Below are positions 3,001 to 39,790 of a stretch of DNA of 40,562 nucleotides, one piece after another; position 1 is the stretch's first letter, and the number at the start of each line of letters is the position of its first letter. Source of the DNA: Verrucomicrobiales bacterium (lineage in GTDB: Bacteria > Verrucomicrobiota > Verrucomicrobiia > Verrucomicrobiales > SLCJ01); assembly GCA_024636835.1 (NCBI GenBank), contig JAGXGH010000005.1, positions 1 to 40,562 of the forward strand, in the 5' to 3' direction. The translations under genes were made by a program, and so were the position numbers. The notes under the pieces were generated by a model. The model had not been told where the DNA came from and made no database searches. It saw only the letters and a list, made by a program, of their open reading frames with translations.

Positions 3001-4950
3001 GCGTCTTCGATTTTGAGGTTACTGACCACGTCGATGAGCATTTCCAGCTCGCGCCCGGCATCGTCGATCTCTTTGCCGAGTGCATCGGCGTCGATGACTT
3101 TGGTCAACTTCGACACGGCGGCACCGTTTTCGTTCACCTTGGTGCGGTAGGGGTCGAGCGATTCTTCGAGTAGGAGAAAGTCGACGGTTTTCCCGGAAAC
3201 CATGTCGGTGGCATCGCTGACGCGGTTTTCCAATTGATCGACGAAGTCGGTATCGATGTAGCGCACTTCTCGCAGGCCGATGACTTCACCGCGTAAGGTG
3301 CGCAGTGCGCCGAGTTGTTTGACGAACCCGAGGATATCATCTGGCGGCGAGTGTTCGGCATCGCGCAGTAGACGTTCGGACGACTTGGAGATTTCGGCAA
3401 TCCGGTCGCCGGCTGACTGACGGAGACGGCGGACTTTATCGAACTCGCTGATGGCGGAGTTGGCGGCCTCGTTGATCTGTTTGAGCGGTTCTGCGAGGTT
3501 GTGGGCTTCCGGTTTGGCAACCCAGAAATAGGCGTCGATGACATCGCCAGTGCGCTTGACCAGATCGATGTAGAGATCGCCAAACGAGTCGTCCTTGGCG
3601 AGGAGTGTGAGGATTTCCCGGCAATCCGCCATCGCGCTGACGAGGTCGGGGTTACCGATTTTCGCGAGGAAGGAGTCGCTGCTCGTTTGCTGTGAAACGA
3701 CGGCTTCATCGCTGAGATACGGCGTCTGCCAAACTTGTAGCGTATGGTATTTCTGCGGTTGGTCTTCGGTTTTGAAGTAGATGAGCTCGCCGCTATCGAA
3801 GACGGAGTACCCGCTGCAAAGCACCGGGTTGTCGATGCCGCGTTGGATGAGGTTGTAGCTGAGCAAGACGTAGTCGCCGGTCTCGCGGTTGTAGAAAACG
3901 AACAGCGTGTCCTCGCCATTGGCGGAGATGACACGACGCTCGAAGCGCATGTTGAACAAGCCGTGATCGAAGGTTTTTTTCTCACCACTAAGCAAGTAGT
4001 AGCCGTTGGCGAAGATAACGCCGTGATCGTCCGGGAGGAGGACGCAGGAATCTCCGATGGCATCGATGCGTGTGACCTCGCTGGTCTTTTCGTTGAAGAT
4101 GAAGTGGCGGGTTTTTTCCTCGCGGTAGGGACGGATGCGAAGAAGGACGAGGTGGCCAATCACGGCGTAGTCGATCTCGGCGTCGTCGAGGGTTTGGTCG
4201 ACCTCGTCGACGGGCTCTGAGTAGATGCCAGCGCCGTCGGAGGTGTTGTCTTCGATTTTGATGGTGAGATCGCCGCCGACGGTTTCGACGAAGACTCTGT
4301 CCTCGATGGAGACGTGTGGGAACTCGCCTGACCGCTGCATGTCGCGGTTGGCGCGTTTCCAATCGAACTCGTGCTGAGCGGGGAAGGAATATTCGTGGTC
4401 GAAGCGGTTGCCGAGGTATTCGAGTGTGCCGTCGCCTTTGACGAGCCACTTGAAGGTCTTGATGTCGGTGACCTCGCGACCGATCCGCATCGCCATATAG
4501 AGGTTTGGCCCGATGCTGCGGAATTTTACGAACGAGGTGTTTTTGTAGTATTTGTAGAGGTAGCCGAAATCCTCTGCGAAGGTGCCGCTGCCCGCTCGGC
4601 CGGTGAGCACGGATTCAGGCTCGACTACAGTGAATGTGTGCGAACTACGATCGTAGTCGTAGACGTCGAACACATCGCGAATATCGGTGGTTTGTTTGAG
4701 TCCGAACTGAATGTTGTAACCAAAGATAAACCGCCCTTTTCCGATGGGCACCATGTCGCGCGGAACGCAGTTGTGATCGGTGGTGATACGCTCGGTGGCG
4801 ATCAACGCGGACTCGACGGCGCCGAAGAGGTCGCGGCGGTCGGCGTTGAGAGCATCGAGACGCTCGCGGAGAACCACGGCGTGTTTATCCAGACGGGCAC
4901 GAATGACTTCGTAGGCGCCGCCTTCTAGTTGGTTGGTGGAGTCGGGCATT
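1..4950 (-). CDS. Giant AAA+ (AAA_5/MoxR-type) ATPase-domain protein, more than 1650 aa. The 3' end (C-terminus) is cut off by the window start; the ATG is at 4950..4948.
   Basis: Hand translation of the minus strand gives an uninterrupted reading frame from the ATG at 4948-4950, which sits directly after an in-frame TAA, down to nt 1 (1650 codons). Walker A 'MGMLLLVSPPGYGKTTLMEYVANRLG' lies at forward ~870-950. Walker B is 'VMIYLDDIQH'. The sensor region 'VAVVMAGNPYTESGGKFQIPDMLANRADTYNLGD' is the MoxR/AAA_5 signature. A Thr/Ser/Pro low-complexity linker lies at forward ~2040-2130. The plus-strand ORFs in the track (63..431, 3744..4220, 4371..4928) have the V/D/G/F-rich composition of antisense artefacts. 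Confidence 0.75.
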
Positions 4951-5064
4951 TAGGAGGAGATAGTTACTGCACACGAGTGGAAAAAGGCGGGATTGACCGC
5001 GAAAAACGCTGAACACGCGAAAGGAAGGCAGGGTTGGGTATGTGAGAAACTTTTTGAAGTTCGT

Positions 5065-5508
5065 CTAGCTTTGGAGACGGGGTGGAGATGCGTTGGGAAT
5101 TGGATGTTTTGTTTCTAGGACGATGCGTTCCCATTCTAACTTTGGGTAATGCCCGAAGTTGAGGAGGATGCCAAGTTTGAGACCGGTTGCCCTTAGGTAG
5201 TTTTGAATTTGGGCGCGGTGTTCGTCGTTAAGCTTGCTAACAGATTTGAGCTCTAAGATGATTTTTTGGTAGGCGATGAAATCTGGGCGCAAAAATTGGG
5301 TAAGTTTCTGACCCTTGTATTCGAGTTCAACTTTAGGCTCATGCACGGCGGGAATTTTCTGAAGTGAAAACTCCCGCCCCAGACATTCGTGATAGATGGG
5401 TTCACTCATTCCGCAGCCCCTTTCTCGGTATACTTCGAAGCAGGCTCCCATAATGGAGTAACTCTCTTCTTTGTATAGGAGGCTCATCGGCTTGTTTTCA
5501 TCGTTCAT
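5065..5508 (-). CDS. GxxExxY family protein (PD-(D/E)xK nuclease-like small protein). Its GC is clearly lower than the flanks.
   Basis: 147 aa. The motif 'MGACFEVYRERGCG' matches the GxxExxY signature near the N-terminus. The ATG at 5506-5508 was verified. GC is ~45% against ~60% in the surroundings. Confidence 0.8.
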   Translation of the reverse strand: MNDENKPMSLLYKEESYSIMGACFEVYRERGCGMSEPIYHECLGREFSLQKIPAVHEPKVELEYKGQKLTQFLRPDFIAYQKIILELKSVSKLNDEHRAQIQNYLRATGLKLGILLNFGHYPKLEWERIVLETKHPIPNASPPRLQS

Positions 5509-5549
5509 AAACTTTCGCGTAATCGGCGTATTTCGCGGTCAGTCTTCAC

Positions 5550-16313: not shown

Positions 16314-16913
16314 TCAGCGTTCGAGCAATTGCAAGGCCATCACGCGGATGGTTGCTGATTCTGCTGCGGCTGCGACGACAGGTCTGCCGACCGTTGGTGC
16401 CACTCCTGCGTCTGGTTGGCTGGTAAACACATACCACTCGCCGAGTTCCATCACCAGGTCGAAGCGTTTACGCATGGTACGAAACAGTGGCTGCGCGACC
16501 GAGGTGTCGCGGCCCTCGATGATCTTGAAGAGCTTGTAGCCAATGATCCCGCGAAATTCATACTCCCCGCTGATTTTAAAAAATCCATCGGCATCTGTGG
16601 CGATCACATTGCCAGTGCAACGTGTGCCGACTTCATGGTCCGACCATTCGACGACGGTTCCGTCGGTATCGATTTCCTTGACCGCGCGGACAGGTGACAT
16701 TTTGCCGAGCAAAAATTTGTCCTCCTTCACCGTGGTAACCCAGCGTGTTGCACCGGCGATTGAGCCGTTGTCGAGGGCGCTTGAGATGGCTGCATCACTG
16801 GTCTCTGTGCCATGGAGTGCGAATTCAAGTACCTCGACTTCAATTTCACCGAGGACGTCGGAGTAAGGCGTAACCGCGAGTAGCAGAATGGCTAAGAGAC
16901 GGACGGAATTCAT
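16314..16913 (-). CDS. Secreted hypothetical protein, about 200 aa. The track ORF extends to 17066, but the ATG at 16913 gives a clean signal peptide.
   Basis: 'MNSVRLLAILLLAVTPYSDVLGE' is a signal peptide. There are no recognisable motifs. It is on the same strand as, and immediately upstream of, the GTPase pair, with a 90-bp gap. Confidence 0.5.
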   Translation of the reverse strand: MNSVRLLAILLLAVTPYSDVLGEIEVEVLEFALHGTETSDAAISSALDNGSIAGATRWVTTVKEDKFLLGKMSPVRAVKEIDTDGTVVEWSDHEVGTRCTGNVIATDADGFFKISGEYEFRGIIGYKLFKIIEGRDTSVAQPLFRTMRKRFDLVMELGEWYVFTSQPDAGVAPTVGRPVVAAAAESATIRVMALQLLER

Positions 16914-16985
16914 TGCTGTAACGCTTCCCGTATCACGCGGCAGAGTCAATACCGAAGGGGTGTGATTTTTTTCGGTGGATGGGCA

Positions 16986-17123
16986 GCCGCAGGCTTTTGA
17001 GTGCGGCTGGTACTGCCGCTTTTGTTTTCTTTTGCGCGACGATGGAGCATGGTCAGGAAACACCAAGGCATGTCCGCCTTGCCGTGAAAGCGGTGATGCT
17101 CACCGCACTCAAAAGCCTGCGGC
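16986..17123. repeat. Perfect 20-21 bp inverted repeat CCGCAGGCTTTTGAGTGCGG (16987-17006 and 17103-17122) flanking 96 bp, with a nested 7-11 bp inner stem (GCCGCTTT / AAAGCGG). This forms a roughly 138-nt hairpin, MITE-like.
   Basis: Read directly from the sequence. The right arm is the exact reverse complement of the left arm. It lies in the intergenic region between the LysR stop (17161) and the start of the secreted-protein gene (16913). Confidence 0.7.
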
Positions 17124-19473: not shown

Positions 19474-19492
19474 GCGAGATATAAAAATTTAA

Positions 19493-19527
19493 CGCCCTGT
19501 TGGATTCGTCCGGCAGGGCGTTTTTTT
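19493..19527 (+). terminator. Rho-independent terminator after the aminotransferase gene
   Basis: Stem CGCCCTG...CAGGGCG, followed by TTTTTTT at 19521-19527. Confidence 0.7.
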
Positions 19528-19595
19528 GTGGAGATTATTTCCGGAGCGGGTGTCTCCAGGCTCCTGCTAGTGGGATAAGGAGCTATTTGATGTCA

Positions 19596-19615
19596 GGCAT
19601 CTAGTAAGCTCTTTG
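19596..19615. repeat. Copy 1 (imperfect) of the ~21-bp hairpin palindrome family ACTAGATGTCAGGCATCTAGT
   Basis: tttGATGTCAGGCATCTAGT. The left arm has degenerated. Confidence 0.55.
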
Positions 19616-19694
19616 GTCGTTGTGTTTTGGATAGTGTTAGTTTTGAGTTACTTGTGACGATGAGGTTTTTTAGATAGCTCGCGCGGGAACGGCT

Positions 19695-19715
19695 ACTAGA
19701 TGTCTGGCATCAAGT
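19695..19715. repeat. Copy 2 of the palindrome family (ACTAGATGTCtGGCATCaAGT)
   Basis: Direct read; two mismatches against the consensus. Confidence 0.6.
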
Positions 19716-19883
19716 TTGGTAATGATCTGACGTGTCGCGTAGAACCGCTGCGCGGCACGCGATTGACAAGTGGGCGTGAAGTTGGTTGATTGAGAACGAC
19801 TTGTGCGCGGAGAAAAGTCATCTTTTTATTCGAAACCGGTATTAGAGGTTTAGTTTCTCGACGGAGGCTGCTTTGGTCTGGGT

Positions 19884-20618: not shown

Positions 20619-21776
20619 CTAACTACGCTCAATTCGTCGGGATTGTCGAAAGGCGCCTGGTGATAGATCCAACTCGCGGCGGAAAACTTCGGTTAGGCGT
20701 TGGGGCTCGGTGAATCCACATTTGATCGCGATCTCTGCGACTGGCAGATCCGTCTCGGTTAGTAGTTCCTTTGCCCGCTCGAGTCGTACGCGCAGGATTT
20801 CCTTTTGCAGTGTGCGCCCAGTGGCGTTTTTAAATCTGATTTCGAGCGGACGCCGTGACAGAGGTATTGCAGCAAGGACATCGCCGACCTGGATCGGCTC
20901 GTCCGCATGGTCGCGAATGAAACGAATGGCCTGTCGTATCAGCTTGTCGTCGGTGGCGATCATATCGCTTGAACGACGGACCTGTAATTGGGACGGGGCT
21001 ATCGGTGCGTGGGTATTGATGGCTTGTTTGGCCATCAAACGATCGAGCAGGGATGCCGCTTCGTAGCCCACGCGCTCGCCTGGCAGCACGACACTGGACA
21101 GGGCAGGGTCGCTGAAAGGGCAGAGCACGTTGTCCCCGCCAATGCTAATGACCGCAGCCTCTTCGGGGACGGTGATTTCGGCCGTGCGTAAAGCGTTGAG
21201 CACATCGAGCCCCGTATTGTCGGCCGCGGCAATCACACCGAAAGGAGGATCAAGTGACCGCAACCAATTGGTGGCCCGTTTCATGATGGTTGCGTCCTTG
21301 CCTTTTTGATGGCCTCGGGGTTCGAGATCGAAACACGAGAAATCGAGTGCGTGCTGCGTAACCGCTTCGCGAGCCCCCTCAAGCCGCGCGGCCACATACG
21401 GGGCATGAAAGTCCGCGCCGACGAAGGCGATGTGCTTCAGCCCGCATTCGATAAGGTGCTCGACGGCCAATCGTCCCGCCATCCGGTCATCCCAATCGAT
21501 GCGTGGTAGATTCTCATTCTGAAAATGGGGACCCACACAGACCACTGGCATCTTCAGTCGGAGCAGGAAGTCCATTTCCCTGCGCAAGGACGGAAAGGCG
21601 ATCACCCCATCGATTTTCAGGTTGCGCGGTAATGTCCAGTCGTCTAGGTCGGCCCACGGAATCAACGTTTGCCAGCGGTGATTTTGCCGGGCGTAGCGCC
21701 CAACCCCATGGATGATCTGCCGACGAGCGGTGTGGTCAACCTGGGTGAAGATCAGGGTTCGTAGGCGGGATCGCAT
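20619..21776 (-). CDS. XylR-like AraC-family transcriptional regulator: a periplasmic-binding-protein-like sensor domain plus a C-terminal AraC HTH. The ATG at 21776 is chosen over the track start at 21932.
   Basis: The C-terminal 'IAIKCGFTEPQRLTEVFRRELDLSPGAFR' is an AraC HTH. The N-terminal region is LacI/PBP-like. It is divergent from a carbohydrate-active gene cluster. Confidence 0.8.
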   Translation of the reverse strand: MRSRLRTLIFTQVDHTARRQIIHGVGRYARQNHRWQTLIPWADLDDWTLPRNLKIDGVIAFPSLRREMDFLLRLKMPVVCVGPHFQNENLPRIDWDDRMAGRLAVEHLIECGLKHIAFVGADFHAPYVAARLEGAREAVTQHALDFSCFDLEPRGHQKGKDATIMKRATNWLRSLDPPFGVIAAADNTGLDVLNALRTAEITVPEEAAVISIGGDNVLCPFSDPALSSVVLPGERVGYEAASLLDRLMAKQAINTHAPIAPSQLQVRRSSDMIATDDKLIRQAIRFIRDHADEPIQVGDVLAAIPLSRRPLEIRFKNATGRTLQKEILRVRLERAKELLTETDLPVAEIAIKCGFTEPQRLTEVFRRELDLSPGAFRQSRRIERS

Positions 21777-21947
21777 CTTCGTAGGATGCCAAAACATCCG
21801 TAAAATATCAACGCAAAAGAGTAAGTGAAAGACGCTGCCGCGTATTGCCTTGGTCGCGTAGGATCGATATATTCCTGAACAAGGATTGAGTATCAGCCAT
21901 GAGATTTGTCCTTCCTGAAATCGAACTAGCACTTACTCAAAACCATT

Positions 21948-22760
21948 ATGAAACCTAATCAAACAACAATCGCCCGCCCGCGCACCGAGCTTTTCGCTAC
22001 GATTGCCTTGCTCGGAATCATTTGCCTCAGCACGGCGACAGCCGCGACCACCATCGTTTCCGAAAGTTTCGGTGGCACCGGTGCCGACCTCAATGGTACC
22101 ACCGCTGAGATCTTCGCCAGCGGGATCACGACCGCCGGTGGATCGAGCACTTGGTCGGCAAGTACCTCATTCAACGACGATGGTTCCCTCGTTAGTGGCA
22201 ACAATCAGGGTGCCTATCTCAACATGGGTACCTACATCAACGACACCAAGGGAACCGCCAGTGGCCTGTTGACCTTTTCCGTCATCATCAATTCATTACC
22301 AGACAGCGCTTGGGCAGGCTTCGGCTTTTTCGTGGGCAACACCCCGAGTATTAACGAAAATTTCACCAATGCCCTTGCCTCTGGATCGGGAACGATCATC
22401 TGGCGTAACACGGACAGCGAATTGGACGGTTTCGCAGGCCCGGGTTCTAGTAATGGGGTGGACGGACCAAATGGCGTAACTGCTGTCCCCCAACTCCTCA
22501 CCATTGTCCTCGATCTGACGACGCACGATAACACTTCGGATTTTGGCACGGTTTCGTTCTTTCAAGGTGATGGCACGGGTACCGCATTCGGCTCTCACGC
22601 CTATACCTCGGATATCTCGTTCGGCTCAATTGGCCTGAGCACCGCTGGAAATAACGTGAATTCCTCCTATTCGAGCTTCGAGTTGTCGCAGGTGCCCGAG
22701 CCTTCGGCTGCGCTGCTGAGCGGCTTCGGTGCGATCCTGCTGCTGCGTCGCCGGCGTTGA
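21948..22760 (+). CDS. PEP-CTERM sorting-domain surface protein, Thr/Ser/Gly/Asn-rich (paralog 1)
   Basis: Signal peptide, and a C-terminal 'VPEPSAALLSGFGAILLLRRRR', which is the PEP-CTERM motif plus a TM segment plus an Arg cluster. Confidence 0.85.
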   Translation: MKPNQTTIARPRTELFATIALLGIICLSTATAATTIVSESFGGTGADLNGTTAEIFASGITTAGGSSTWSASTSFNDDGSLVSGNNQGAYLNMGTYINDTKGTASGLLTFSVIINSLPDSAWAGFGFFVGNTPSINENFTNALASGSGTIIWRNTDSELDGFAGPGSSNGVDGPNGVTAVPQLLTIVLDLTTHDNTSDFGTVSFFQGDGTGTAFGSHAYTSDISFGSIGLSTAGNNVNSSYSSFELSQVPEPSAALLSGFGAILLLRRRR

Positions 22761-22788
22761 TTCACGCTACAAAAACACTCATCTCATC

Positions 22789-22819
22789 AAGCCGCCATGG
22801 CCATCGGCCATGGCGGCTT
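22789..22819 (+). promoter_or_regulatory. Perfect 12-14 bp stem hairpin AAGCCGCCATGGCC-atc-GGCCATGGCGGCTT between the PEP-CTERM gene and the hydrolase gene. It is an attenuator or partial-terminator candidate.
   Basis: Direct read. It starts 29 nt after the stop at 22758-60 and is followed by the T-rich 'tatgtttgcttc'. It overlaps the false N-terminal extension of ORF 22797. Confidence 0.5.
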
Positions 22820-22832
22820 ATGTTTGCTTCCC

Positions 22833-25367
22833 ATGTCCCTGAAACACTTCCTCATTGTCTCCCTGGCTGGTTCGATCGCCTGCTCGTCGCCGATGTGGGC
22901 CGACACATTGGTGCTGACTCCTACAGACGACAGCTACATCCGCGCCAGCCAAAGCAATCAGGGCGAAAACACCCTGGTGATCATTGGAGATACGGCAACC
23001 GCCAATGACTACCTGCGGGGTGCGTTTGCCTTTGACCTCAGCGGCTCGGTGCTCACCGGTGCCACCATCAGCAGCGTCACGCTTACACTGACCATCGATA
23101 CCCGCGATACCAGCAACGGCGGTAGCAGCAGTGCGGTCAACACTATTGATTTGCATGAACTCTCGGCCTCTTTCACCAATAACGGTATCACCTGGACCAG
23201 TCGCGACGGCAGTAATCCATGGTCCACAGCTGGCGGGGATTTCGGCGGTGTGCTGACAAGCCTTATTTCGAATGCAGGCAGTGTGAACACTGGCGACAAA
23301 CTGAATTTTTCGAGCACGGCTCTGATGGCCGCAGCAGAGGCGGCGCGGGGTGGCACGCTCCCCCTGCTCGGCAAACTGCAAAATGAAGATGCAAACCGTA
23401 GTGTGTTCCGAATCGCCTCGGCAAACCATTCGAATCCCAGCTACCGCCCCGTCCTCACCATTGAATACCAAGCCTTCGTCAGCGACCCCAACCTGAGTCA
23501 GGACATCCTCTCCGGCGACCCGGATCTTCAATTCGGCACAATCACCGGCGACCCGCCGGCATCCGCCACCCGGACGCTGCGCTTCGTCAACGAAGGGCCC
23601 AATAACCCGATTACGATCGAATCGGCTCAGATCACCGGCAGCGGCGTTTTCACCATCAATGACCTTGCTTTGAATGACGGCGGGGGGCAGACCTTACCGC
23701 TCACGCTTCAAGTCGGGGATGCCCTCGCTCTGAAAGTTGCGGCTAGTTCAAGTGACTATCTGCCTCTGGCCGAAGCCACACTCATTCTCGATACCAATGA
23801 TAACCTCCAGGATCGTGAGTTTGCTCTCAGTGTCTCGTTCCCTGAGCCGGGCAGTGCGATGGCCCATCCTGCGATCCCGGGCACCCCGGCAAGTAGCGCC
23901 TATCAGGTGCGCGTCGACGGAGTGCCTGTGGCTGTCAACGATGAGAGCTACTTTGATTTTCACACCGCCTTCTTTTCCATTGAGGAGCCTGCAATGGTGG
24001 AGGTCGAGTTTTCTCCGGGGGTCTCCTACACATCGATCCACCCCTTGCGCCACGGGATTCAACCCACGATCAACGGCAACACCATCAGCTTCCCGATGCT
24101 GGAGCCGCACAAGCTGGTGATCAAAGCCAGCGGAGCCTTGCCACTCGCTCTTTGTGCGACACCGAACGAGGAGAATATCCCCGCATCCGGTGATCCGGAC
24201 GTGCTCTACTTCGGGCCGGGCACTCACGAACCCGGTTTGATCGAACCGGTGTCGGGGCAGACGGTTTATCTTGCGTCCGGAGCCTTGGTCAAAGGCCGGA
24301 TCGAGGTGCGCGATGCCACCGGTGTCACCATCCGGGGTCGCGGCACTTTGGATGCCCGTGGCTACTCGGTGCGCGGCGACAAGACCCACGCGATCCTTTT
24401 CGAAGGCTGCAACGACGTCCATATCGAGGGTATCGGAATTCGCGGTGGCACATGGTGGCAGACGCTCTTTCTTCTTACTAACGACGCTTCGGCCATTCAC
24501 CTCAGTTTGTTTGGGGTTAGCGTCAACACTGATGGCATCGATATCGACGGCGTGCAGCGTTTCGTGGCCCGCGACTGCTTCATCCGCTGCGAGGACGACG
24601 GCTTCGGTTGGCATGTGCTGGATGCGGAAACAAACGGCGAACCGCCAACCCGGGACTGCCTGGCCGAGGACTGTGTGATATGGAACACCCGATATGGCAA
24701 CGGGCTGCGGGTCGGTGCCTCCATGGAAACCGAACTCTTCGAGAACATCACCTTCCGCGACATCGATGTTCTCGAACATGCGGGGGCCGCCATTTATGCC
24801 GACCACTCCGACTGGGCGACCTGCCGCAATATCCGCTTCGAAAACTTCACCGATGAGACCACGAAGCAGACGGTGAACATGTATATCGACAAGACGCGTT
24901 ACAGCAACGCGACCGGCTACCGCGATGAACGGGGCCACTATGATGGTTTGCATTTCGTCAATCTGAACTCGCCCGGGGGCGGCATCCGCTTGGCAGGCTA
25001 CGATGCCGGGCACCTGATCGACCAGGTAAGCTTCACCAACAGCAAAACCGGCTCCTCATGGATCGATGGACCCGAGGACATCACCACCAACGCGTTCGTG
25101 ACCAATGTCACCTTCTCGGTGGACCCACCCGTCTTCGAGGCCAGAGCAATCAAGCTCTCCCCGAGCGTTGCCGGTTGGATCCAGCTGGGTTTTTCTTCGA
25201 TCCGAGATGAGGCATATTCCATTCTCGCCTCCGATGACCTCGGAATTACGGATCCATTCTCGGTGATTGGAAACACGACAGGGAATGGCGATGCCACATC
25301 CATTCTCCTCTACGACTCTGGCGCAGCAGGTAAACAACGTCGCTTTTACCGGATTCGTAAAGATTGA
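22833..25367 (+). CDS. Secreted right-handed parallel beta-helix (pectin-lyase fold) glycoside hydrolase, GH28-like. It has an N-terminal extra domain of about 380 aa.
   Basis: Signal peptide 'MSLKHFLIVSLAGSIACSSPMWA'. 'GVSVNTDGIDIDGV', 'CEDDGFGWH', and 'NGLRVGASMETELFENITFRDIDV' are typical of GH28 and related beta-helix hydrolases. It is a paralog of 26709..28511. Confidence 0.7.
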   Translation: MSLKHFLIVSLAGSIACSSPMWADTLVLTPTDDSYIRASQSNQGENTLVIIGDTATANDYLRGAFAFDLSGSVLTGATISSVTLTLTIDTRDTSNGGSSSAVNTIDLHELSASFTNNGITWTSRDGSNPWSTAGGDFGGVLTSLISNAGSVNTGDKLNFSSTALMAAAEAARGGTLPLLGKLQNEDANRSVFRIASANHSNPSYRPVLTIEYQAFVSDPNLSQDILSGDPDLQFGTITGDPPASATRTLRFVNEGPNNPITIESAQITGSGVFTINDLALNDGGGQTLPLTLQVGDALALKVAASSSDYLPLAEATLILDTNDNLQDREFALSVSFPEPGSAMAHPAIPGTPASSAYQVRVDGVPVAVNDESYFDFHTAFFSIEEPAMVEVEFSPGVSYTSIHPLRHGIQPTINGNTISFPMLEPHKLVIKASGALPLALCATPNEENIPASGDPDVLYFGPGTHEPGLIEPVSGQTVYLASGALVKGRIEVRDATGVTIRGRGTLDARGYSVRGDKTHAILFEGCNDVHIEGIGIRGGTWWQTLFLLTNDASAIHLSLFGVSVNTDGIDIDGVQRFVARDCFIRCEDDGFGWHVLDAETNGEPPTRDCLAEDCVIWNTRYGNGLRVGASMETELFENITFRDIDVLEHAGAAIYADHSDWATCRNIRFENFTDETTKQTVNMYIDKTRYSNATGYRDERGHYDGLHFVNLNSPGGGIRLAGYDAGHLIDQVSFTNSKTGSSWIDGPEDITTNAFVTNVTFSVDPPVFEARAIKLSPSVAGWIQLGFSSIRDEAYSILASDDLGITDPFSVIGNTTGNGDATSILLYDSGAAGKQRRFYRIRKD

Positions 25368-25543
25368 TGCACGGTCTGTCGTCGCGCCGAGTGCTCTGCT
25401 TTTTACCAATCACGGTGTGAAAAGGTCGCCTCATATCCGGAAATCACCCGATCGACGCTTAGAGCGAAGAATAAAACGTCCAGACGTATTGTCGCGCGAT
25501 ATTATTTCCGCTAAAGTCCTCATATCCGTCAAGAAACAGAGCC

Positions 25544-26377
25544 ATGAAAGTCACCTCCAAATCCAACATCACCATCCTCGCAGCGGCCCTAGCCATCGCC
25601 AGTCACGCTTCCGCAACGACCATCTTCACCGACACTTTCGATTCGGGAACGGGCGCGTGGTACAAAGCTTACAACAACGGCACCGACACCGCGCTCACTA
25701 ATTCCTCAGGTTCGCTTTCGTGGAGCGTGGGAGCCAATGGAGGAGACGCCTACGGGGTGATCGGGCGTTCGTTCAGCGGGCAGACGCTAGCAGTCGGGGA
25801 CAGCATCCTCTTCAGCTTCGACTTCACCCCGACGAGCGATACCGGCATCGTGCGGGTCGGACTGCACGATCTCTCCGGTGGGGCCGCCGCGTCGGCGGAC
25901 GATTGGGCCAATACCGCCACGGGAGCCTATGCCGGATATGCCACCTTTTTCCGAAGCACCGGAAGTAACGCTACGCGAGTCGAGGACGGCCCCATGACAA
26001 CCACAGCCAACACGGCCTATCCGCTTTACATGGGATCAAATGGCGGTGCGAGCAACTCGACCATCACCACGTCCGGCGGCTCCACTGATTATCCATTCGT
26101 CAACAACTCTACGTATCAGGTTTCCTTCGAAATCACCCGCACGTCGGCCTCGCAAGTGGACACCCTGCTCACCGTTCTGGACGGTGCGACGACGGCCTAC
26201 TCGGTCGTCGGTAGCCAAACCAGCGGAACCACCTACGATGCCTTTAACACCGCTGCGGTGCGGATCAGTGACGGCACCGCCCTGTTCGACAACGTTCAGG
26301 TTGAGGTGATCCCCGAACCATCCGCAGCGTTGCTCGGCGGCCTCGGCATGCTGCTCATGCTCCGCCGTCGGCGTTGA
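25544..26377 (+). CDS. PEP-CTERM sorting-domain surface protein (paralog 2)
   Basis: Signal peptide, and a C-terminal 'IPEPSAALLGGLGMLLMLRRRR'. After the signal peptide the mature N-terminus, 'ATTIFTDTF', is similar to paralog 1, 'ATTIVSESF'. Confidence 0.85.
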   Translation: MKVTSKSNITILAAALAIASHASATTIFTDTFDSGTGAWYKAYNNGTDTALTNSSGSLSWSVGANGGDAYGVIGRSFSGQTLAVGDSILFSFDFTPTSDTGIVRVGLHDLSGGAAASADDWANTATGAYAGYATFFRSTGSNATRVEDGPMTTTANTAYPLYMGSNGGASNSTITTSGGSTDYPFVNNSTYQVSFEITRTSASQVDTLLTVLDGATTAYSVVGSQTSGTTYDAFNTAAVRISDGTALFDNVQVEVIPEPSAALLGGLGMLLMLRRRR

Positions 26378-26410
26378 GTTTTTCGGGAAAGGATCTACTT
26401 TTCAGATCAA

Positions 26411-26443
26411 CGCCGCTGTGGCTCCGGCTCCGGCGGCGTTTTT
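26411..26443 (+). terminator. Rho-independent terminator after PEP-CTERM gene 2
   Basis: CGCCGC...GCGGCG stem, followed by TTTTT at 26439-26443. Confidence 0.6.
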
Positions 26444-26708
26444 CGTCTGGCAGAAATCGGTTGATCGCTCCGGTGATGTTCAAAGAACCAATAATACCGG
26501 AACCCGGTAAGGTTGATACGCGAAGTGGGCTGGGAACGGTGATTCTGTCCATGAATGCCCGCGACGAACGATCTAAAGGGTATTAGAATTTGGTATAAAT
26601 GATTTTATTTTCTTTCGCTCGTTCTCTTCGCTACCACTGGGATCAAAAGGTTGGATCGATGAGGATGATGCGATACCGCGAGCAACCCAACAAACAACAA
26701 GCTAGGCA

Positions 26709-28511
26709 ATGACGATGAAGAGTTTAATGCTGTTACTGTTTTCGGTGGTCCTAACGCATGCAGGTCTGGTGCGTCCCATGCCTCTGCTGCCCGGAGACAA
26801 GCGGAGCCCCGACTATGAACTGTTGGTGGATGGCAAACCGGTGCCCGTGGCCTTTGGCGAATTCAATGGCGGGAAGAGCTTCCACCACGCGAGTTTCGAA
26901 ATGGAAGGCGATACCAAAGTAACGGTTCGTTTTCCGAATGGTCTGCCCGATTCCGTCGAAATTGTTCCTTCGCGTCACCAGCTTCCCGTCCAGCGTGAAA
27001 GCTCGTCGGTGAGCTTCGACATCGATCAAGCGCACAAGCTCGTCCTGAAAGCGGAGGGTTTGCGTCCGCTTTTTCTCTTCGCGCTGCCGCCGGAGCTTGA
27101 TCCCCCGAAGCCCGATGACCCCAAAGTGCATTATTTTCCGGCGGGCGTTCACAAGGTCGGCGAATTTCGCCCCAAGTCCGGTGAGACCGTCTATCTGGCA
27201 CCGGGTGCGGTGGTGAAAGGGATCCTCCATGCCTTCGAGATCGAGGGCCTGGTGATTCGCGGACGGGGTCTGTGGGATGCCCGCGGCTATACCAGCAAAG
27301 CCAAAAAACTCCACGGAATGCTTTTCGAGCGTTCCAAAAATATCGCTATCGAAGGCATCCAACTCCGCACCGGCGACTGGTGGCAGACGAACTTCCTGCT
27401 CTCCTCAAACATCGAAATCGAGCACATGATGCTGATGAGTTTCGGAGTGAACAACGATGGTATCGATATCGACGGGGTGAGCGACTTGTCCGTCCGCCAT
27501 TCGTTCATCGGCTGCGGCGATGATGGCTTCGGCTGGCATGCGATCGATGCGGTGACCCTCGGTGAGCCACCCTCAAGAAACCTTTTGGCCGAGGATTGTG
27601 TGATCTGGAATGAACATGCCGGCAACGGCCTAAGGCTCGGTGCCTCAATGGAGACCTCGGTCTTTGAAAACATCACCTTCCGCGACATCGATGTCGTTAA
27701 CGTCTGCCGACGGGGTGTCGCCATCATGATGGATCACTCCGACTGGGCCCACACGCGCAATGTCCTCTTCGAGCGTTTCCACAACGAATCGGGTAAACCG
27801 CTGATGTCGCTCTCAACCAAGAAAACCCGCTACTCGAACAAAACGGGCTACCGCGATGAACGCGGTGAGATCAGCGACCTCTACTTTCACCAGGTTACTT
27901 CAAAGAACCCGGGAGTGACGCTGGTGGGTGCGGATGCCGAGCACGGCATTCACGACCTCTGGTTTGTCGATTGCACGCTGGGTGGCAAACTCCTGACATC
28001 TACCAAGGGCTTCAAGATGAATGAGCACGTCTCCGGACTGCGTTTCTCGGACACCATGCCGGAGCGCAAGGTATATCCTGACGAGCCAAAGAAAGGCAGA
28101 CAACTGGCGGAGCTTACGATTGACAATGGCGACCCCGGCTTTTGGGCTTTTGGCGGGGAGAGTCTTCGCGTGATCGATGGTATTGCCGATGCCGAGGGGG
28201 AGAACCTCGTCCGGATCGGAAAACTCGGGTGGGGGCACGCCGCCGTTTATACCCCCGACCTGAAGGGTCGTTATGAAATCCTTATCCACTGGGTGCCACA
28301 GCCCAAACTCTCCAGCAAGACACCTTGGACGGTGCATCACGCAGACGGCTATGAAACTACGGTCTTTGGTCCCGGTGCCGAGCCGGGCTGGCAAAGCCTG
28401 GGTGTTTTTGAACTCAATGCCACAAGCTGGGTGCGTCTGGTCGATCCGCACTATCAGATCACCGATGGGGCGGTGATCGCGGACGCTGTCCGTTTTGTGC
28501 GTGTCAAATAG
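26709..28511 (+). CDS. Secreted right-handed beta-helix glycoside hydrolase (paralog of 22833..25367) with a distinct C-terminal domain of about 150 aa
   Basis: Signal peptide. The blocks 'LVLKAEGLRPLFLF', 'VYLAPGAVVKG', 'IRGRGLWDARGY', 'GDWWQTNFLL', 'NNDGIDIDGV', 'GCGDDGFGWH', and 'TRYSNKTGYRDERG' are shared with the 856-aa paralog. Confidence 0.7.
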   Translation: MTMKSLMLLLFSVVLTHAGLVRPMPLLPGDKRSPDYELLVDGKPVPVAFGEFNGGKSFHHASFEMEGDTKVTVRFPNGLPDSVEIVPSRHQLPVQRESSSVSFDIDQAHKLVLKAEGLRPLFLFALPPELDPPKPDDPKVHYFPAGVHKVGEFRPKSGETVYLAPGAVVKGILHAFEIEGLVIRGRGLWDARGYTSKAKKLHGMLFERSKNIAIEGIQLRTGDWWQTNFLLSSNIEIEHMMLMSFGVNNDGIDIDGVSDLSVRHSFIGCGDDGFGWHAIDAVTLGEPPSRNLLAEDCVIWNEHAGNGLRLGASMETSVFENITFRDIDVVNVCRRGVAIMMDHSDWAHTRNVLFERFHNESGKPLMSLSTKKTRYSNKTGYRDERGEISDLYFHQVTSKNPGVTLVGADAEHGIHDLWFVDCTLGGKLLTSTKGFKMNEHVSGLRFSDTMPERKVYPDEPKKGRQLAELTIDNGDPGFWAFGGESLRVIDGIADAEGENLVRIGKLGWGHAAVYTPDLKGRYEILIHWVPQPKLSSKTPWTVHHADGYETTVFGPGAEPGWQSLGVFELNATSWVRLVDPHYQITDGAVIADAVRFVRVK

Positions 28512-28573
28512 CGCGCTGCCACCAAGATTCCTTGATCGATCGATAAACCCTATCAGCCAATCCGATAGTCCTC

Positions 28574-30307
28574 ATGCACACCGCCGACTGGATCGTCATC
28601 AGCCTCTACCTCATCGCCACGGTGGGGATCGGGGTGTTGTTGGGGCGTAAGGTGAAAAACACCTCGGATCTGTTCGCCGCTGGTGGGGCATCGCCGTGGT
28701 GGGCCAGCGGCCTGAGTGCATTCATGACGATGTTTTCCGCCAACACCTTCGTGGTGTGGGGCGGCATGGCCTACGAGCACGGCACGGTCGCGATCATGGT
28801 GAACCTCTGCTACGGGGTGGCCGCGCTGCTGGCGGGCTATACGGTGGCGGGAAAATGGAAGAAGCTGGGCGTGCGCACACCGGCTGAATTTGTCGAACGC
28901 CGCTTCGGCAAGGGGGCGCTGCATTTCTACACCTGGGCGATGATGGTTTTCCGCTTGGTTGGCGCGGCCGGGGCGCTTTATGCCATTGCCACGCTCACGG
29001 TGGCAGTGACGCACGGCGATAACAACGCCGCGCAGGTGCAGGGCATGCCTCCGGAACTGGTGACGGCGATCCTGGTCTTCGGTGCGGTGGTGGTGCTTTA
29101 CACCATGATCGGCGGACTGTGGGCGGTGCTGATGACCGATGTGATCCAGTTCATCGTGCTCAACGCGGCAGTGGTTTTCGTAGTCGCGCTGACACTCTTC
29201 GACATCGGCGGGCTCGGTGGATTCATCGCTCAAGCGCCGGAGGGCTTTATTGCCTTCACCTCCGGGTCGAGATACACTTGGTTTTTCCTCTTCGGTTGGG
29301 TGGCAATCCACTACTTCATGATCGGCGCGGAGTTCGCCTTTGTGCAGCGCTATCTCTGCGTGCCGAATCCGCGTGACGCCCGACGAGGCACGGTTTTGTT
29401 CGGTGTCATGTATTTGATTTCCCCCTTCCTGTGGTTGTTGCCGCCACTTTTGTGGCGGGTGCAGAGCCCGATCCCGGAAGGGGCAACCGCTGATATGATT
29501 CGCGTGCTCAAGGAAGAGGCCTACATCAGGTCATGTGTGGAGGTGCTACCGATCGGCATGGTCGGACTGATGATGGCGGCGATGTTTTCCGCCACCGCCA
29601 GCTTGATCAGCTCGCAGCTCAATGTATTTTCCGGCGTGCTCACCCATGACATTTACCGGCCCTGGAGAAAGATGACGACGGAGAAGGGCCTACTCTTTGC
29701 CGGTCGGGGGTTCACGCTTCTGCTGGGTGTTATGATCGCCGGTATAGCCCTTTGCATTCCTATGCTGGGGGGTGCGGAAAAAGTCATCATTTCCATCACC
29801 GAGCTGATGGTCGTGCCCTTACTCGCCCCGATCCTGATCGGACTGCTGAGCAAGCGAGTGAACTCGGCGGCCCTGTGGGTCACAGCAGGGATTTGCATTC
29901 CTCTCGGCCTGGCCTTGCACTTCGGCCTGATAGTCCCGCCGGAGAACAGTGCGTCCTGGCAATGGCTCTTCAGCCAATCGAAAACCTTAGTCGGTGTGGT
30001 GCTGCCCATGGCGATCGTGTTGATCTTCCATTTCCGGGCGCGTGGCACGGATGAGCGTTGGCAACATATCGAGAAGCTGCAAGCCAGCGGGCTCGAAGCG
30101 GAAGCCACCACGCCCGGAAAAGCAGATGCGGGACCGACGCGTATCGTCGGCTGGAGCATGGTGGTGCTCGGGCTTGGCATGCTTTGCCTGCTTCCGATCA
30201 ATCCCGGCGACCGTCTTACCATCCTTGCTTTTGGGCTTCTCGTTGCAATGATCGGGTTCACAATACTCAGGGCAGCGAAATATTTAAATTCTAAAACGAC
30301 ATCATGA
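28574..30307 (+). CDS. Sodium:solute symporter (SSS/SSF family) transporter
   Basis: 577 aa and polytopic. 'DWIVISLYLIATVGIGVLLGRKVKNTSDLFAAGGASPWWASGLSAFMTMFSANTFV' is the SSF signature N-terminus. Confidence 0.85.
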   Translation: MHTADWIVISLYLIATVGIGVLLGRKVKNTSDLFAAGGASPWWASGLSAFMTMFSANTFVVWGGMAYEHGTVAIMVNLCYGVAALLAGYTVAGKWKKLGVRTPAEFVERRFGKGALHFYTWAMMVFRLVGAAGALYAIATLTVAVTHGDNNAAQVQGMPPELVTAILVFGAVVVLYTMIGGLWAVLMTDVIQFIVLNAAVVFVVALTLFDIGGLGGFIAQAPEGFIAFTSGSRYTWFFLFGWVAIHYFMIGAEFAFVQRYLCVPNPRDARRGTVLFGVMYLISPFLWLLPPLLWRVQSPIPEGATADMIRVLKEEAYIRSCVEVLPIGMVGLMMAAMFSATASLISSQLNVFSGVLTHDIYRPWRKMTTEKGLLFAGRGFTLLLGVMIAGIALCIPMLGGAEKVIISITELMVVPLLAPILIGLLSKRVNSAALWVTAGICIPLGLALHFGLIVPPENSASWQWLFSQSKTLVGVVLPMAIVLIFHFRARGTDERWQHIEKLQASGLEAEATTPGKADAGPTRIVGWSMVVLGLGMLCLLPINPGDRLTILAFGLLVAMIGFTILRAAKYLNSKTTS

Positions 30308-32580
30308 TTCACGAGGGGCCTGCAGAAATCCGACAGCTCAAAACCATTACCCACGAGGTTGACCTCGTGGTCGTCGGCGGTGGGCTGGCAGGCACCTGTG
30401 CCGCCATCGCCGCGGCGCGCGAGGACTTGCAAGTGGTGCTGGTGCAGGATCGACCCATCCTGGGCGGCAACGCATCGAGCGAGGTGCGCCTATGGGTGCT
30501 CGGTGCCACTTCCCACATGGGTAACAACAACCGCTGGGCACGAGAGGGCGGGATCATCAATGAGATCCTGGAGGAAAACCTTTATCGCAACCGTGTCGGT
30601 AACCCGTTGATCCTGGACACCATTCTTCTGGAAAAAGTTCACGAGGAGCCCAATCTCACGCTCCTGCTCAACACCGCGGTGCACGAGGTGGAAAAAAGTG
30701 ATCCGGACACGATCAGCGCCGCGATTGCCTTCTGTTCACAAAATTCGACCCGCTATGTGCTGCGGGCGCCGTTGTTTTGCGATGCTTCGGGGGACGGTGT
30801 GCTGGGATTCCTGAGTGGTGCGGCTTTTCGCATGGGCGCCGAGAGCCGCGAGGAATTCGACGAAGGTTTCGCCCCGGATGAAAGTTACGGTGAGTTGCTC
30901 GGGCACTCCCTCTATTTCTACACCAAGGACACCGGTGCTCCAGTCAGCTTTACTGCCCCGAGCTGGGCGCACAAGGATGTCAGCAGCATCGCCCGCTATC
31001 GGAAGTTCAATGCCAACATGCAGGGCTGCAATTTCTGGTGGGTCGAATACGGTGGCCGACTCGATACGGTGCACGATACCGAAACCATCAAATGGGAGTT
31101 GTGGAAGGTTGTGTACGGCATCTGGGATCACATCAAGAACTCGGGCGACTTCCCCGAAGCCGAGACCATGACCCTCGAATGGGTTGGCCAGATTCCCGGC
31201 AAGCGGGAAAGCCGGCGTTTCGAGGGCGACTACATTCTGCGTCAGCAGGACGTGGTGAATCAGGCTCCTTTTGAAGATACGGTAGCTCACGGCGGCTGGG
31301 CCGTTGACCTTCATCCGGCAGACGGCGTTTATTCCGACAAACCTAGTTGTAATCAGTGGCATTCCAAGGGCGTCTATGGCATTCCCTGGCGCTGCTACTA
31401 CAGCCGTAATATTTCCAACCTGTTTCTTGCTGGCCGTATCATCAGCGCGAGTCATGTCGCGTTCGGATCGAGCCGCGTGATGGCGACATGTGCCGCCGGC
31501 GGTATGGCGGTCGGCATCGCTGCCGCCTTGTGTGGCAAGGTCGGAAAACTGCCACGCGACCTGGGGCAGGGAGATGCGCTGCGCGAGCTTCAACTGAGGC
31601 TCGACCGCTCCGGACAATATTTGCCGGGGATCGAGGTGGTGGATGCCGAAGACCTCGCGACCAAGGCCCAGGTCACCGCCAGTTCGCGCCTCAAACTCGG
31701 TGAGATTTCAGCGAGTGCTGAGTGGATGAAATTGGATGGCGGTTGGGGTATGTTGCTTCCTTTAACTGAGGGGAATTGTCCCGAGTTCGGTTTTGAGATT
31801 TCCAGTGAGCAGTCAGGTGCTTTGCGTTGCGAACTACGCCGTGCGGCCCGGCCCGGGAATTTCACGCCGGATGAACTGGTAGATTCGATTGAAATCCCTT
31901 TCGCGAAAGGTCAATCCAGAGTCGCTGCGAAGTTCAGCAAATCCATCGATCGCGAAGACTATTATTTCGTGAATTTATCCGAGAACCCCGCAGTGCAAGT
32001 GAGGCTGAGTGATGTCAGGATGACGGGCGTGCTGTCGGTGACAAATGCGTTCAACAAAGCGGTCGCCACTTCAAGTGTCCAGTCCCCTCCGCCGGACATC
32101 GGAATCGATTCCTTCGAATTCTGGCTGCCGAAGCGTCGACCCGGCGGGAAAAACCTTGCCATCACGATCGAACCGCCACTCGATGCTTTTGATCAGGATC
32201 AGGTGACCTATGGTCCCACGCGGCCCATGCGTACCGTCAATGCCTGGGTGGCCGATCCAGCAGACCCCAACCCGGAGCTCTCCTTGAGCTGGCCTGAAGC
32301 CGTTCGTATCGGGCGGATCATTATCGATTTTGATCCGGATTGGGATCATCCAATGGAAAGTGTGCTGATGACCCACGCGGAAGAGGTGAGTCCCTTCATG
32401 CTCCGCGACTTTGATCTTGTGGATAACGTAGGCACCGTCTTCGCGGAAGTGCGGGATCATCATTCGGCACGCTTTGATCTACGCCTCGAAAATGTGGCAG
32501 AAACCAAGGGACTCACTCTTCGCATCAAAGCTACCCACGGCGCGCCGGCCAGTGTTTTCCGAATTCGTGTTATGGCCTGA
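30304..32580 (+). CDS. FAD-dependent oxidoreductase (FAD_oxidored family, PF12831-like). Its ATG overlaps the transporter stop as ATGA.
   Basis: 'VDLVVVGGGLAGTCAAIAAAREDLQVVLVQDRPILGGNASSE' is a Rossmann FAD-binding fingerprint. 758 aa. Confidence 0.8.
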   Translation: MIHEGPAEIRQLKTITHEVDLVVVGGGLAGTCAAIAAAREDLQVVLVQDRPILGGNASSEVRLWVLGATSHMGNNNRWAREGGIINEILEENLYRNRVGNPLILDTILLEKVHEEPNLTLLLNTAVHEVEKSDPDTISAAIAFCSQNSTRYVLRAPLFCDASGDGVLGFLSGAAFRMGAESREEFDEGFAPDESYGELLGHSLYFYTKDTGAPVSFTAPSWAHKDVSSIARYRKFNANMQGCNFWWVEYGGRLDTVHDTETIKWELWKVVYGIWDHIKNSGDFPEAETMTLEWVGQIPGKRESRRFEGDYILRQQDVVNQAPFEDTVAHGGWAVDLHPADGVYSDKPSCNQWHSKGVYGIPWRCYYSRNISNLFLAGRIISASHVAFGSSRVMATCAAGGMAVGIAAALCGKVGKLPRDLGQGDALRELQLRLDRSGQYLPGIEVVDAEDLATKAQVTASSRLKLGEISASAEWMKLDGGWGMLLPLTEGNCPEFGFEISSEQSGALRCELRRAARPGNFTPDELVDSIEIPFAKGQSRVAAKFSKSIDREDYYFVNLSENPAVQVRLSDVRMTGVLSVTNAFNKAVATSSVQSPPPDIGIDSFEFWLPKRRPGGKNLAITIEPPLDAFDQDQVTYGPTRPMRTVNAWVADPADPNPELSLSWPEAVRIGRIIIDFDPDWDHPMESVLMTHAEEVSPFMLRDFDLVDNVGTVFAEVRDHHSARFDLRLENVAETKGLTLRIKATHGAPASVFRIRVMA

Positions 32581-38764: not shown

Positions 38765-39517
38765 GTGCGTAGCATTTTTATTTTCATCATTCTGTCGCTG
38801 GTACCTTTGACCGCTAGAACTTGGACTAGCGCGGACGGCAAGAAAACCATCGATGGCGAATATGTCTCTCATACAGACGAACAAGTCGTCATTAAAAGAG
38901 GGACAAAAAATCTCACCGTTAAATACGAGTTCCTCTCCACCTTGGATAGGGAGTGGGTCGAAGACCTCGATAAAGTGTCTGATCCGGATCAATCGAGCGC
39001 CTTGGAGGATGCCGGCCGCCTCAAGACTCTGCTGGCTCTTGTCCAGCATGGCGATGGTGAGGGCACGGTGGTTCGCAAGCTGGAAAAGAACCCGCACATC
39101 GAAGCATCTCTCAGTAAAACATTTCTCGCTCGTGTGGGTCTCAATGGTTTTTTTAAAACCAAAGAAACGCTCAACGGAAAACAGTATGTGTTTCATTTCG
39201 ACTGGGATGAAAATGATCGATTGACCTGCATCACCCTGCGTTCAGAAGAATTTCCCCGGGCTGAGTTCAAGCAAGGTGTGAAAAATGCCTGGCTGGCCGG
39301 TAATAAACTGATTTCTCAATCCTACGGCGAGGCAAAGCAAACCAGTGATTTCCCACCTGTTTCCTCATTATCGCCGGATGCCAATCTCATGATCACCCAT
39401 GTCTGGCATCCGGAGGGCACGAAAAAAACCATCGCCCTATGTGTAGGTATCGATGAGGACAATGCGTTTATTGCATTGAACTATTACGACCGGTTCATCG
39501 AATTAAAGAAGTTATGA
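38765..39517 (+). CDS. Secreted hypothetical protein with an N-terminal SHD1 (SLA1-homology)-like domain. Low-GC gene with a GTG start.
   Basis: Signal peptide 'MRSIFIFIILSLVPLTA'. 'RTWTSADGKKTIDGEYVSHTDEQVVIKRGTKNLTVKYEFLSTLDREWV' matches the bacterial SHD1 pattern (RxWTDxxGK...EAEFV...DGKVxL....G....VPLxxLSxxDQEFV). GC is ~46%. Confidence 0.55.
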   Translation: MRSIFIFIILSLVPLTARTWTSADGKKTIDGEYVSHTDEQVVIKRGTKNLTVKYEFLSTLDREWVEDLDKVSDPDQSSALEDAGRLKTLLALVQHGDGEGTVVRKLEKNPHIEASLSKTFLARVGLNGFFKTKETLNGKQYVFHFDWDENDRLTCITLRSEEFPRAEFKQGVKNAWLAGNKLISQSYGEAKQTSDFPPVSSLSPDANLMITHVWHPEGTKKTIALCVGIDEDNAFIALNYYDRFIELKKL

Positions 39518-39560
39518 TTGCCTAGCATGGGTGCATCATTTCCCACTGAACTGGGTGCAT

Positions 39561-39582
39561 ACTAGATGTCAGGCATGACAAG
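39561..39582. repeat. Copy 3 of the palindrome family (ACTAGATGTCAGGCATgAcAaG)
   Basis: Direct read. The left arm is perfect and the right arm has degenerated. Confidence 0.6.
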
Positions 39583-39769: not shown

Positions 39770-39790
39770 CTAGATGTCAGGCATCTAGTG
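39770..39790. repeat. Copy 4, a perfect 8-bp-arm hairpin palindrome ACTAGATG-tcagg-CATCTAGT
   Basis: Direct read. The arms are exact reverse complements. Confidence 0.7.

Follow-up and report, generated by a model that had tools for sequence, protein, structure and literature searches.

The question raised by this locus is why one short palindrome should recur in the two longest non-coding gaps of a Verrucomicrobiales contig, and whether it is best understood as a mobile repeat, as a set of regulatory sites or as a structured RNA. The window analysed is the whole contig, 40,562 nt in length. A pattern search identified five copies of the motif core TACTAGATGTC(A/T)GGCAT(C), all on the + strand, and the same five were found by reading both regions, so that the recurrence reported in an earlier sequence-only reading is real. 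The coordinates given there for the first copy (19596-19615) were about 10 nt off and those for the fourth were off by 1 nt; the rest were right to within 1 nt. The revised positions are collected in the table below, and the degenerate form of the motif is GCWTACTAGATGTCWGGCATC. The motif recurs in a non-random manner, far beyond chance. For the 21-mer with up to three mismatches 0.00 matches are expected from 100 dinucleotide shuffles of the window, and the 15-mer with up to two mismatches gave 6 matches against 0.05 expected. Beyond the five copies there is a single match with one mismatch or fewer, the possible sixth copy of the table, and matches with two mismatches occur at chance level. 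An 8-nt inverted partial core downstream of c4 is possibly what is left of a partner copy in the opposite orientation. The copies form two groups 20 kb apart, with start-to-start distances of 110 nt (c1-c2), 208 nt (c3-c4) and 94 nt (c4-c5). A CRISPR array, which needs regularly spaced identical direct repeats, is rejected on this irregular spacing, as it had been before.

Table. Positions of the motif copies, their partial relatives and the host spacers in the window, and of the two core copies at the Luteolibacter locus L005
Feature	Position	Strand	Sequence or remark
Host spacer 1, 410 nt	19474-19883		between aminotransferase gene and trmJ
c1, core unit	19585-19605	+	ATTTGATGTCAGGCATCTAGT
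c1, extended	19580-19611	+	13-nt core GATGTCAGGCATC at 19589-19601; ssDNA fold
c2, core unit	19695-19715	+	ACTAGATGTCTGGCATCAAGT
c2, extended	19692-19715	+	GCTACTAGATGTCTGGCATCAAGT, T-variant loop
Host spacer 2, ~446 nt	39518-39963		between SHD1-like ORF and short aspartate kinase gene
c3, core unit	39561-39581	+	right arm decayed
c3, extended	39557-39583	+	GCATACTAGATGTCAGGCATGACAAGC; left arm and loop intact
c4, core unit	39769-39789	+	perfect palindrome, 8-bp arms
c4, extended	39765-39792	+	GCTTACTAGATGTCAGGCATCTAGTGGC; sole perfect 8-bp-arm palindrome among the five
c5, core unit	39863-39882	+	1-nt deletion at loop centre
c5, extended	39859-39882	+	GCATACTAGATGTC-GGCATCATGC; outer GCAT/ATGC pairing kept
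Possible sixth copy, partial core	39398-39410	+	CATGTCTGGCATC; 1 mismatch to 13-nt core; in 3' part of SHD1-like ORF
Inverted partial core, 8 nt	39809-39816	-	GCCTGACA; 26 nt downstream of c4
L005, first copy	4012-4023	+	GATGTCAGGCAT
L005, second copy	4158-4174	-	TACTAGATGTCTGGCAT

Alignment of the copies with 30-nt flanks limits the conserved stretch to approximately 22-29 nt, reaching leftward to GC(W)TAC; since the flanks beyond it are not conserved, the unit is short. When the two spacers were compared by blastn, the right flank of c1, CATCTAGTAAGC, proved to be the exact reverse complement of the left flank of c4, GCTTACTAGATG, which identifies the underlying unit as an imperfect palindrome of ~29 nt, (G)GCWTACTAGATG-TCWGG-CATCTAGTAWGC, with 12-nt arms and the 5-nt loop TCWGG. 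The orientation of the loop is the same in all copies. The earlier description of one perfect hairpin with 8-bp arms, the others being decayed, holds: c4 alone is perfect, and the decay lies in the right arm of c3 and the loop of c5. In c1 the right arm is intact and the left has diverged to ATTTGATG, the copy keeping its inner stem and being bracketed by an outer one, GAGCT/AGCTC. Both in the window and at a Luteolibacter locus described below (L005), conservation is far weaker in the right arm than in the left arm, the loop and GGCAT. A directional core of 18-19 nt may therefore matter more than the hairpin, and a directional protein-binding site explains this asymmetry no less well than a hairpin does.

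Folded singly as ssDNA, c4 forms a hairpin of -6.6 kcal/mol (z -4.2) and c1 one of -4.8 kcal/mol (z -2.2) by way of its outer stem, and the other three of the five copies (c2, c3 and c5) fold no better than shuffled sequence. The 29-nt frame thus has the size and fold of a REP, an imperfect palindrome of 20-40 nt that forms a stem-loop, with c2, c3 and c5 as weak examples. As the unit is nearly palindromic, two copies are able to pair with one another, and c1 and c2 do so over 22 contiguous positions (19 Watson-Crick pairs and 3 G.T) across a spacer of ~89 nt. An A-to-T change in the left arm of c1 is compensated by a T-to-A change in the right arm of c2, and the central bases are complementary (A/T). 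The 151-nt segment from c1 to c2 has z-scores of -3.2 as + strand RNA, -4.1 as - strand RNA and -3.3 as DNA. The c1-c2 and c3-c4 segments fold better than their shuffles, and spacer 2 as a whole has a z-score of -0.4. In the 29-nt frame c1 is nearer to the reverse complement of c3-c5, c2 is ambiguous, and c3-c5 are clearly direct repeats of one another, so that c1 and c2 resemble a REPIN-type inverted doublet and c3-c5 are arranged head-to-tail. The window has this one inverted doublet, c4 having an inverted partner of just 8 nt.

The two host spacers are, as previously stated, the largest non-coding gaps of the contig; the next in a greedy ORF map is 331 nt. Neither contains a convincing ORF, the one candidate (82 aa, 39566-39814) having no Pfam match. 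All copies are intergenic and lie between co-directional genes. Spacer 1 follows a class I/II aminotransferase gene, whose intrinsic terminator is at 19491-19522, and precedes a SpoU/TrmJ-type methyltransferase gene, the named relatives of its TrmJ-like product being Verrucomicrobiales MAGs. The SHD1-like gene before spacer 2 encodes a 250-aa secreted protein that has no Pfam match. The aspartate kinase gene after it ("lysC", 39964-40560) is short; its homologues are of ~260 aa, too short for the usual ACT-domain C-terminal half, and AA_kinase is the one Pfam domain reported for them. Its best database match is 75% identical, and its named relatives belong to Silvanigrellales and Chlamydiae rather than to Verrucomicrobia.

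Prediction found no sigma-70-like promoter in either spacer, and no terminator there besides that of the aminotransferase gene. No Rfam family reached its gathering score anywhere in the window, and a permissive Rfam search returned a spurious miRNA-precursor match and terminator-like matches only. The former, MIR827 at 19581-19720, was rejected as sub-threshold (35 of 65 bits) and as a mere reflection of the c1:c2 hairpin. A MITE with a conserved interior was likewise rejected, because the segments between copies fail to align; sharing no internal sequence, the window copies do not constitute a conventional miniature element. Two further inverted pairs were seen in spacer 2, neither statistically compelling: an imperfect 25-nt pair, GTAGCTGCTTTTGTGAAAAAGTGGC / GCCACGTTTTTACAAGCGCAGCTAC (39642-39762), whose arms start with GTAG and end with CTAC, and a 10-nt pair, AGCTACAGGC / GCCTGTAGCT (39757-39909), that brackets c4 and c5.

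The closest relative for which data were available (loci L103-L106) has a TrmJ protein 90% identical to that of the window and the same order of LysR gene, aminotransferase gene, spacer and trmJ. Pairwise alignment shows that the terminator, the ~50 nt that follow it and the last ~30 nt before the ATG are conserved in the spacer of this relative. The interior of spacer 1, of ~300 nt, is unrelated to the corresponding sequence and is lineage-specific; the ACTAGATGTC motif is absent from the orthologous aminotransferase-trmJ spacer, whose interior holds two copies of a different 53-nt repeat that contains a GCGGAGG...CCTCCGC hairpin (L103 7596-7802). Nor does the motif occur in ~80 kb from the loci of eight further relatives (L092-L099). 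A cis-regulatory site of trmJ would be expected to persist at such a distance, whereas a selfish repeat with fast turnover would not.

Several other differences from this relative were observed. Several of its intergenic regions contain repeats of the heptamer ATTCGTG (L103 6045, 8678 and 8795; L104 901 and 7254), one of them at a contig end. A block of ~12 kb (20619-32580) present in the window is absent from it and is probably an acquired carbohydrate-utilisation island, with genes for a XylR/AraC-type regulator, two paralogous large proteins, a sodium:solute symporter and an FAD oxidoreductase. A weak GH28 match was obtained for one of the large paralogues, and the two have in common DNA repeats of 72-84% identity at 24.5-24.9 kb and 27.5-27.9 kb. 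After trmJ, genes for a metallophosphoesterase, chorismate synthase and FabV follow within ~2.3 kb in the relative (L104).

Occurrences of the motif in other genomes were sought with exact 16- and 17-mers in genome, metagenome and viral collections that do not include the window's own genome, giving 96 matches in total. The 17-mer gave five unrelated single matches among 185,579 species genomes; the 16-mer gave 86 single matches in metagenome contigs, mostly in coding or AT-rich unrelated contexts, and five in viral contigs. One locus among the 114 fetched contains two copies of the core. This locus, L005, is the last 4.4 kb of a contig from a Luteolibacter MAG (JBIPMR010000034.1), and its 19-nt core is identical to that of the window contig. 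The two copies are inverted, 134 nt apart, and lie 65 and ~215 nt upstream of a RAYT-like Y1_Tnp gene. L005 also gave the sole tblastn match to a RAYT-like query among 91 loci (L001-L091, the five viral loci being outside this search). The ORF, MAPWKDSLTRPAIYHCVSRVVDRR...SNHFHLLLEVPP, starts 65 nt past the second copy and runs off the contig end, so that the 5' flank alone is visible. An NAD-epimerase gene lying immediately before the first copy is truncated after ~57 residues (Pfam residues 8-57, profile positions 1-49 of 240), as would be consistent with an insertion. The suggested link between motif and transposase thus comes from one locus in another genus, with the gene cut by the end of the contig.

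Homologues of the L005 ORF fragment carry the Pfam domain Y1_Tnp, and the JGI label attached to them, "REP element-mobilizing transposase RayT", is a generic COG name. All 120 homologues among the matches listed (P0121-P0240) are fragments of at most 119 aa, many at contig ends. We rebuilt a conceptual full-length protein of ~360 aa across a frameshift in locus L102. It contains a HUH motif (SNHFHILLE) and a YIDLNPVRAG motif, with additional sequence inserted between the HUH and Tyr motifs and a long extension at the C terminus. Its score against NCBIfam NF047646, REP_Tyr_transpos, is 63.8 bits (E 1.5e-17), below the cut-off of 80, and its score against IS200 is far lower, at 18 bits; no significant sequence match was found in the PDB (2ec2 at E 0.07). 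Copies of the gene in long contigs (L100 10001-10936; L102 10001-11084; L109 9870-10233) include some with in-frame stops or frameshifts. Judged from these sequences, the verrucomicrobial RAYT-like family appears to be multi-copy, nested and decaying, and more IS-like than a single-copy domesticated gene. When the window was searched by tblastn with a 68-aa fragment and with the 360-aa conceptual protein, nothing was found below E = 0.5, and thus no RAYT-like gene or remnant.

Five RAYT-like genes have a positionally conserved box upstream of them, with the core CCAGACA and mostly of the form AAAATCCCAGACAA, and alignment places the L005 motif at the position of this box. The box is often tandem or duplicated: L100 has three copies, L108 has two, 152 nt apart, and L109 has two, together with a further occurrence within the gene where the contig ends. 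The reading frames of several truncated homologues continue into the box as Y/FKIPDK. In being duplicated in tandem, recurring within a gene and being read into by truncated homologues, the box behaves as the end of a mobile unit. The ACTAGATGTC motif itself is absent at six RAYT-like homologue loci (L100, L101, L102, L107, L108 and L109), where other boxes occur; at the first five of these the boxes form local tandem copies only, with no dispersal within loci of 5-20 kb. In our reading the box also looks like a -35/-10 promoter, so that part of the L005 match could reflect promoter conservation. The conserved start of spacer 1 (19528-19575) includes GAGATTATTTCCGGAG, and the 10-mer GATTATTTCC found there is also the triplicated box of L100 (9912-9966), possibly by coincidence.

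On the balance of this evidence we think it somewhat probable that the motif represents selfish repeats of REP type, a small family that a RAYT-like tyrosine transposase has spread, and this is the best supported of the readings considered, operators and RNA elements being weaker rivals. The 18-19-nt core, TTACTAGATGTCWGGCAT, would probably be the recognition sequence of a Verrucomicrobiales RAYT-like HUH/Y1 transposase. As there is no transposase gene in the window, the copies there would be non-autonomous orphans that have built up in two intergenic spacers permissive for them. As single-stranded DNA, the motif would fold into a hairpin, either alone or as a doublet of the c1:c2 type, and a Y1 transposase acting in trans would bind and cleave it. 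The unit would then be copied or moved to other intergenic sites, with fresh copies landing beside old ones and so producing clusters. We infer that the motif is recognised by a transposase encoded in the same genome, that its copies move or once moved, and that expression of trmJ or lysC may be affected. A bolder proposal is that the core is the target of an active branch of RAYT-like Y1 transposases (~360 aa, multi-copy and self-targeting), intermediate between IS200 and domesticated RAYTs, that spreads itself and orphan REP/REPIN-like satellites across genera. The identity of the 19-nt core in the window contig and the Luteolibacter MAG would then mean that the branch has moved between genera, but we regard this proposal as speculative and would not expect it to hold.

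A REP is a palindrome of 20-40 nt whose stem has 5-13 bp; one end usually bears an unpaired GTAG tag, and REPs often occur in clusters and beside RAYT genes (PMC3733652). REPs and REPINs mobilised by RAYTs have been described in Enterobacteria and Pseudomonas, and a GTAG-REP superfamily across phyla (PMC3116915, PMC5581495, PMC3733652); REP families and abundant tyrosine transposases are further reported from the PVC superphylum, Verrucomicrobia among them, Opitutus terrae being one example (PMC3733652). A RAYT gene is typically present in a single copy, with the repeats that it disperses on either side (PMC5581495). The motif described here resembles such elements in its size (20-40 nt) and form, an imperfect palindrome with 8-12 bp in the stem and 3-5 nt in the loop, and in being extragenic and clustered between co-directional genes. 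It is also lineage-specific, missing from the orthologous site of a close relative, and in another genome it adjoins a gene whose product scores best against REP_Tyr_transpos. The c1:c2 pair, like a REPIN, forms one long hairpin. It differs from a GTAG REP in that no GTAG tag (or GTRG, GYAG or GTGG) lies 5' of the stem, the 5' flank being CTAC, TTAC or ATAC on the + strand. Read on the opposite strand, this flank gives GTAG, GTAA or GTAT 3' of the hairpin, with the polarity reversed, and in the ideal palindrome it is base-paired. Moreover, c3-c5 lie head-to-tail at 94-208 nt rather than as head-to-head or tail-to-tail dimers. REPs are dispersed through the extragenic space of a genome in tens to thousands of copies; the 40.5 kb of this one contig have five copies plus one partial, the five in two spacers. 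The associated protein departs from a RAYT in its length of ~360 aa, in scoring below the NCBIfam cut-off and in belonging to a multi-copy, often pseudogenised family. Since size, clustering and lineage specificity agree with REPs but GTAG is absent and the protein family is more IS-like than domesticated, we call the motif REP/REPIN-like, with a probable dependence on a RAYT-like transposase, and not a canonical GTAG REP. It is an element of a known kind, and no new system. The REP/BIME character proposed in the sequence-only reading is accordingly favoured in its REP part, by the relative's spacer that lacks the motif, the L005 pair beside a Y1 gene and the c1:c2 hairpin, though the GTAG tag is missing. 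BIMEs are rejected, as there are no alternating arrays and the spacers between copies (89-187 nt) share no linker sequence.

Two other classes of element invite comparison. The system resembles IS200/IS605 elements such as IS608, and their miniature derivatives (PATEs), in its HUH/Y1 transposase, in having ends that bear subterminal sequences or hairpins, all pointing the same way on one strand, and in a target preference for insertion beside existing copies; the multi-copy, nested and decayed gene copies in L100-L109 are IS-like. The protein nevertheless matches IS200 TnpA weakly, by the scores given above, and no element with two defined ends could be rebuilt. In TIRYTs, or TIRtrons (PMC3733652), a RAYT-like gene lies beside its own non-GTAG repeat and solo repeats are moderately abundant elsewhere, much as here. 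However, TIRs are described as flanking the gene on both sides in the form of long terminal inverted repeats, whereas in our case the 5' side alone is visible and the unit is short.

An operator role had been raised as the alternative to a REP. On this view a dimeric DNA-binding protein would recognise the 13-bp dyad GATGYC-N-GRCATC, and two or three sites upstream of trmJ, and likewise upstream of the aspartate kinase gene, would act cooperatively. In size the dyad-symmetric core is typical of operators, each copy is placed at approximately -100 to -400 nt from the ATG of a + strand gene, the sites 94-208 nt apart are compatible with looping, and the L005 site overlaps a putative -35 element of the RAYT-like gene promoter. 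This alternative is weakened, however, by the orthologous trmJ spacer of the closest relative, which keeps its ends and its terminator and lacks the motif. It must further accommodate a tRNA methyltransferase and an aspartate kinase with no evident functional link, spacers with no sigma-70-like promoter, and conservation that continues past the dyad on one side (GCWTAC). Elsewhere, moreover, the sole convincing occurrence adjoins a transposase gene in a different genus. Three lines, the relative's spacer without the motif, the L005 pair and the c1:c2 doublet, favour REP/REPIN over an operator, and we consider shared operators to be quite improbable. A still fainter prospect, to which we attach very little weight, is that the copies are transposase-independent structured RNAs, either tandem small RNAs with a common seed or hairpins of 5' leaders or 3' UTRs. 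It is true that the T...G version of the motif lies on the sense strand of the flanking genes in all copies, where the stem can be extended through U.G on the + strand, the - strand having a C/A mismatch, and that the c1-c2 and c3-c4 segments fold better than shuffles. Yet the c1-c2 hairpin is at least as significant on the - strand, the fold of spacer 2 as a whole is unexceptional (z -0.4), and Rfam returned no match at gathering thresholds, MIR827 being merely the c1:c2 hairpin. In addition, no promoter or terminator signals delimit units of ~100 nt, and the sequence between copies is not conserved.

Closer to the REP-type reading, and in effect a close variant of it, is the idea that the copies are inert scars, namely left-end boxes that remained after repeated RAYT-like or IS200-like insertion and deletion at two hot spots, the motif never having moved alone. 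An equivalent box does lie at the left boundary of homologous elements, often in direct duplicate (L100, L108, L109), the RAYT-like family often shows nested or self-targeted insertion and pseudogenised copies, and c3-c5 are in direct orientation. Five boxes without a gene would nonetheless need five clean deletions, and tblastn detected no trace of transposase coding sequence in either spacer. The inverted c1:c2 doublet with its compensated change also resembles a REPIN more than it does two independent scars, and we judge this history unlikely, although less so than either operators or structured RNAs.

If the motif is indeed a REP-type repeat, it adds a family of this kind, with a probable RAYT-like partner, for Verrucomicrobiales, in a phylum where such elements have barely been described, and it accounts for two unusually long spacers that differ from the closest relative. 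Repeats of this sort interrupt metagenome assemblies, and they may be misread as regulatory sites or small ORFs. Understanding of REP/RAYT biology would be unchanged by this; the point of interest to specialists is the associated transposase family, which has the look of a multi-copy, nested and decaying group and not of a single-copy, domesticated gene.

Some further features of the window were noted away from the two spacers. A 147-aa gene of the PD-(D/E)XK nuclease superfamily at 5065-5508 on the - strand (PDDEXK_3, E 8e-38) lies between two 33-nt inverted repeats (4991-5023 and 5512-5544) with 85% complementarity, and gene and repeats together (4991-5544) look like a cassette. A 37-nt inverted repeat at 16986-17123, 81% complementary and with a 64-nt loop, is located near the 5' end of the - strand ORF 16314-17066, between this ORF and a LysR-type regulator gene. 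Finally, an ORF of at least 1,649 codons occupies positions 3-4949 on the - strand and runs off the start of the contig.
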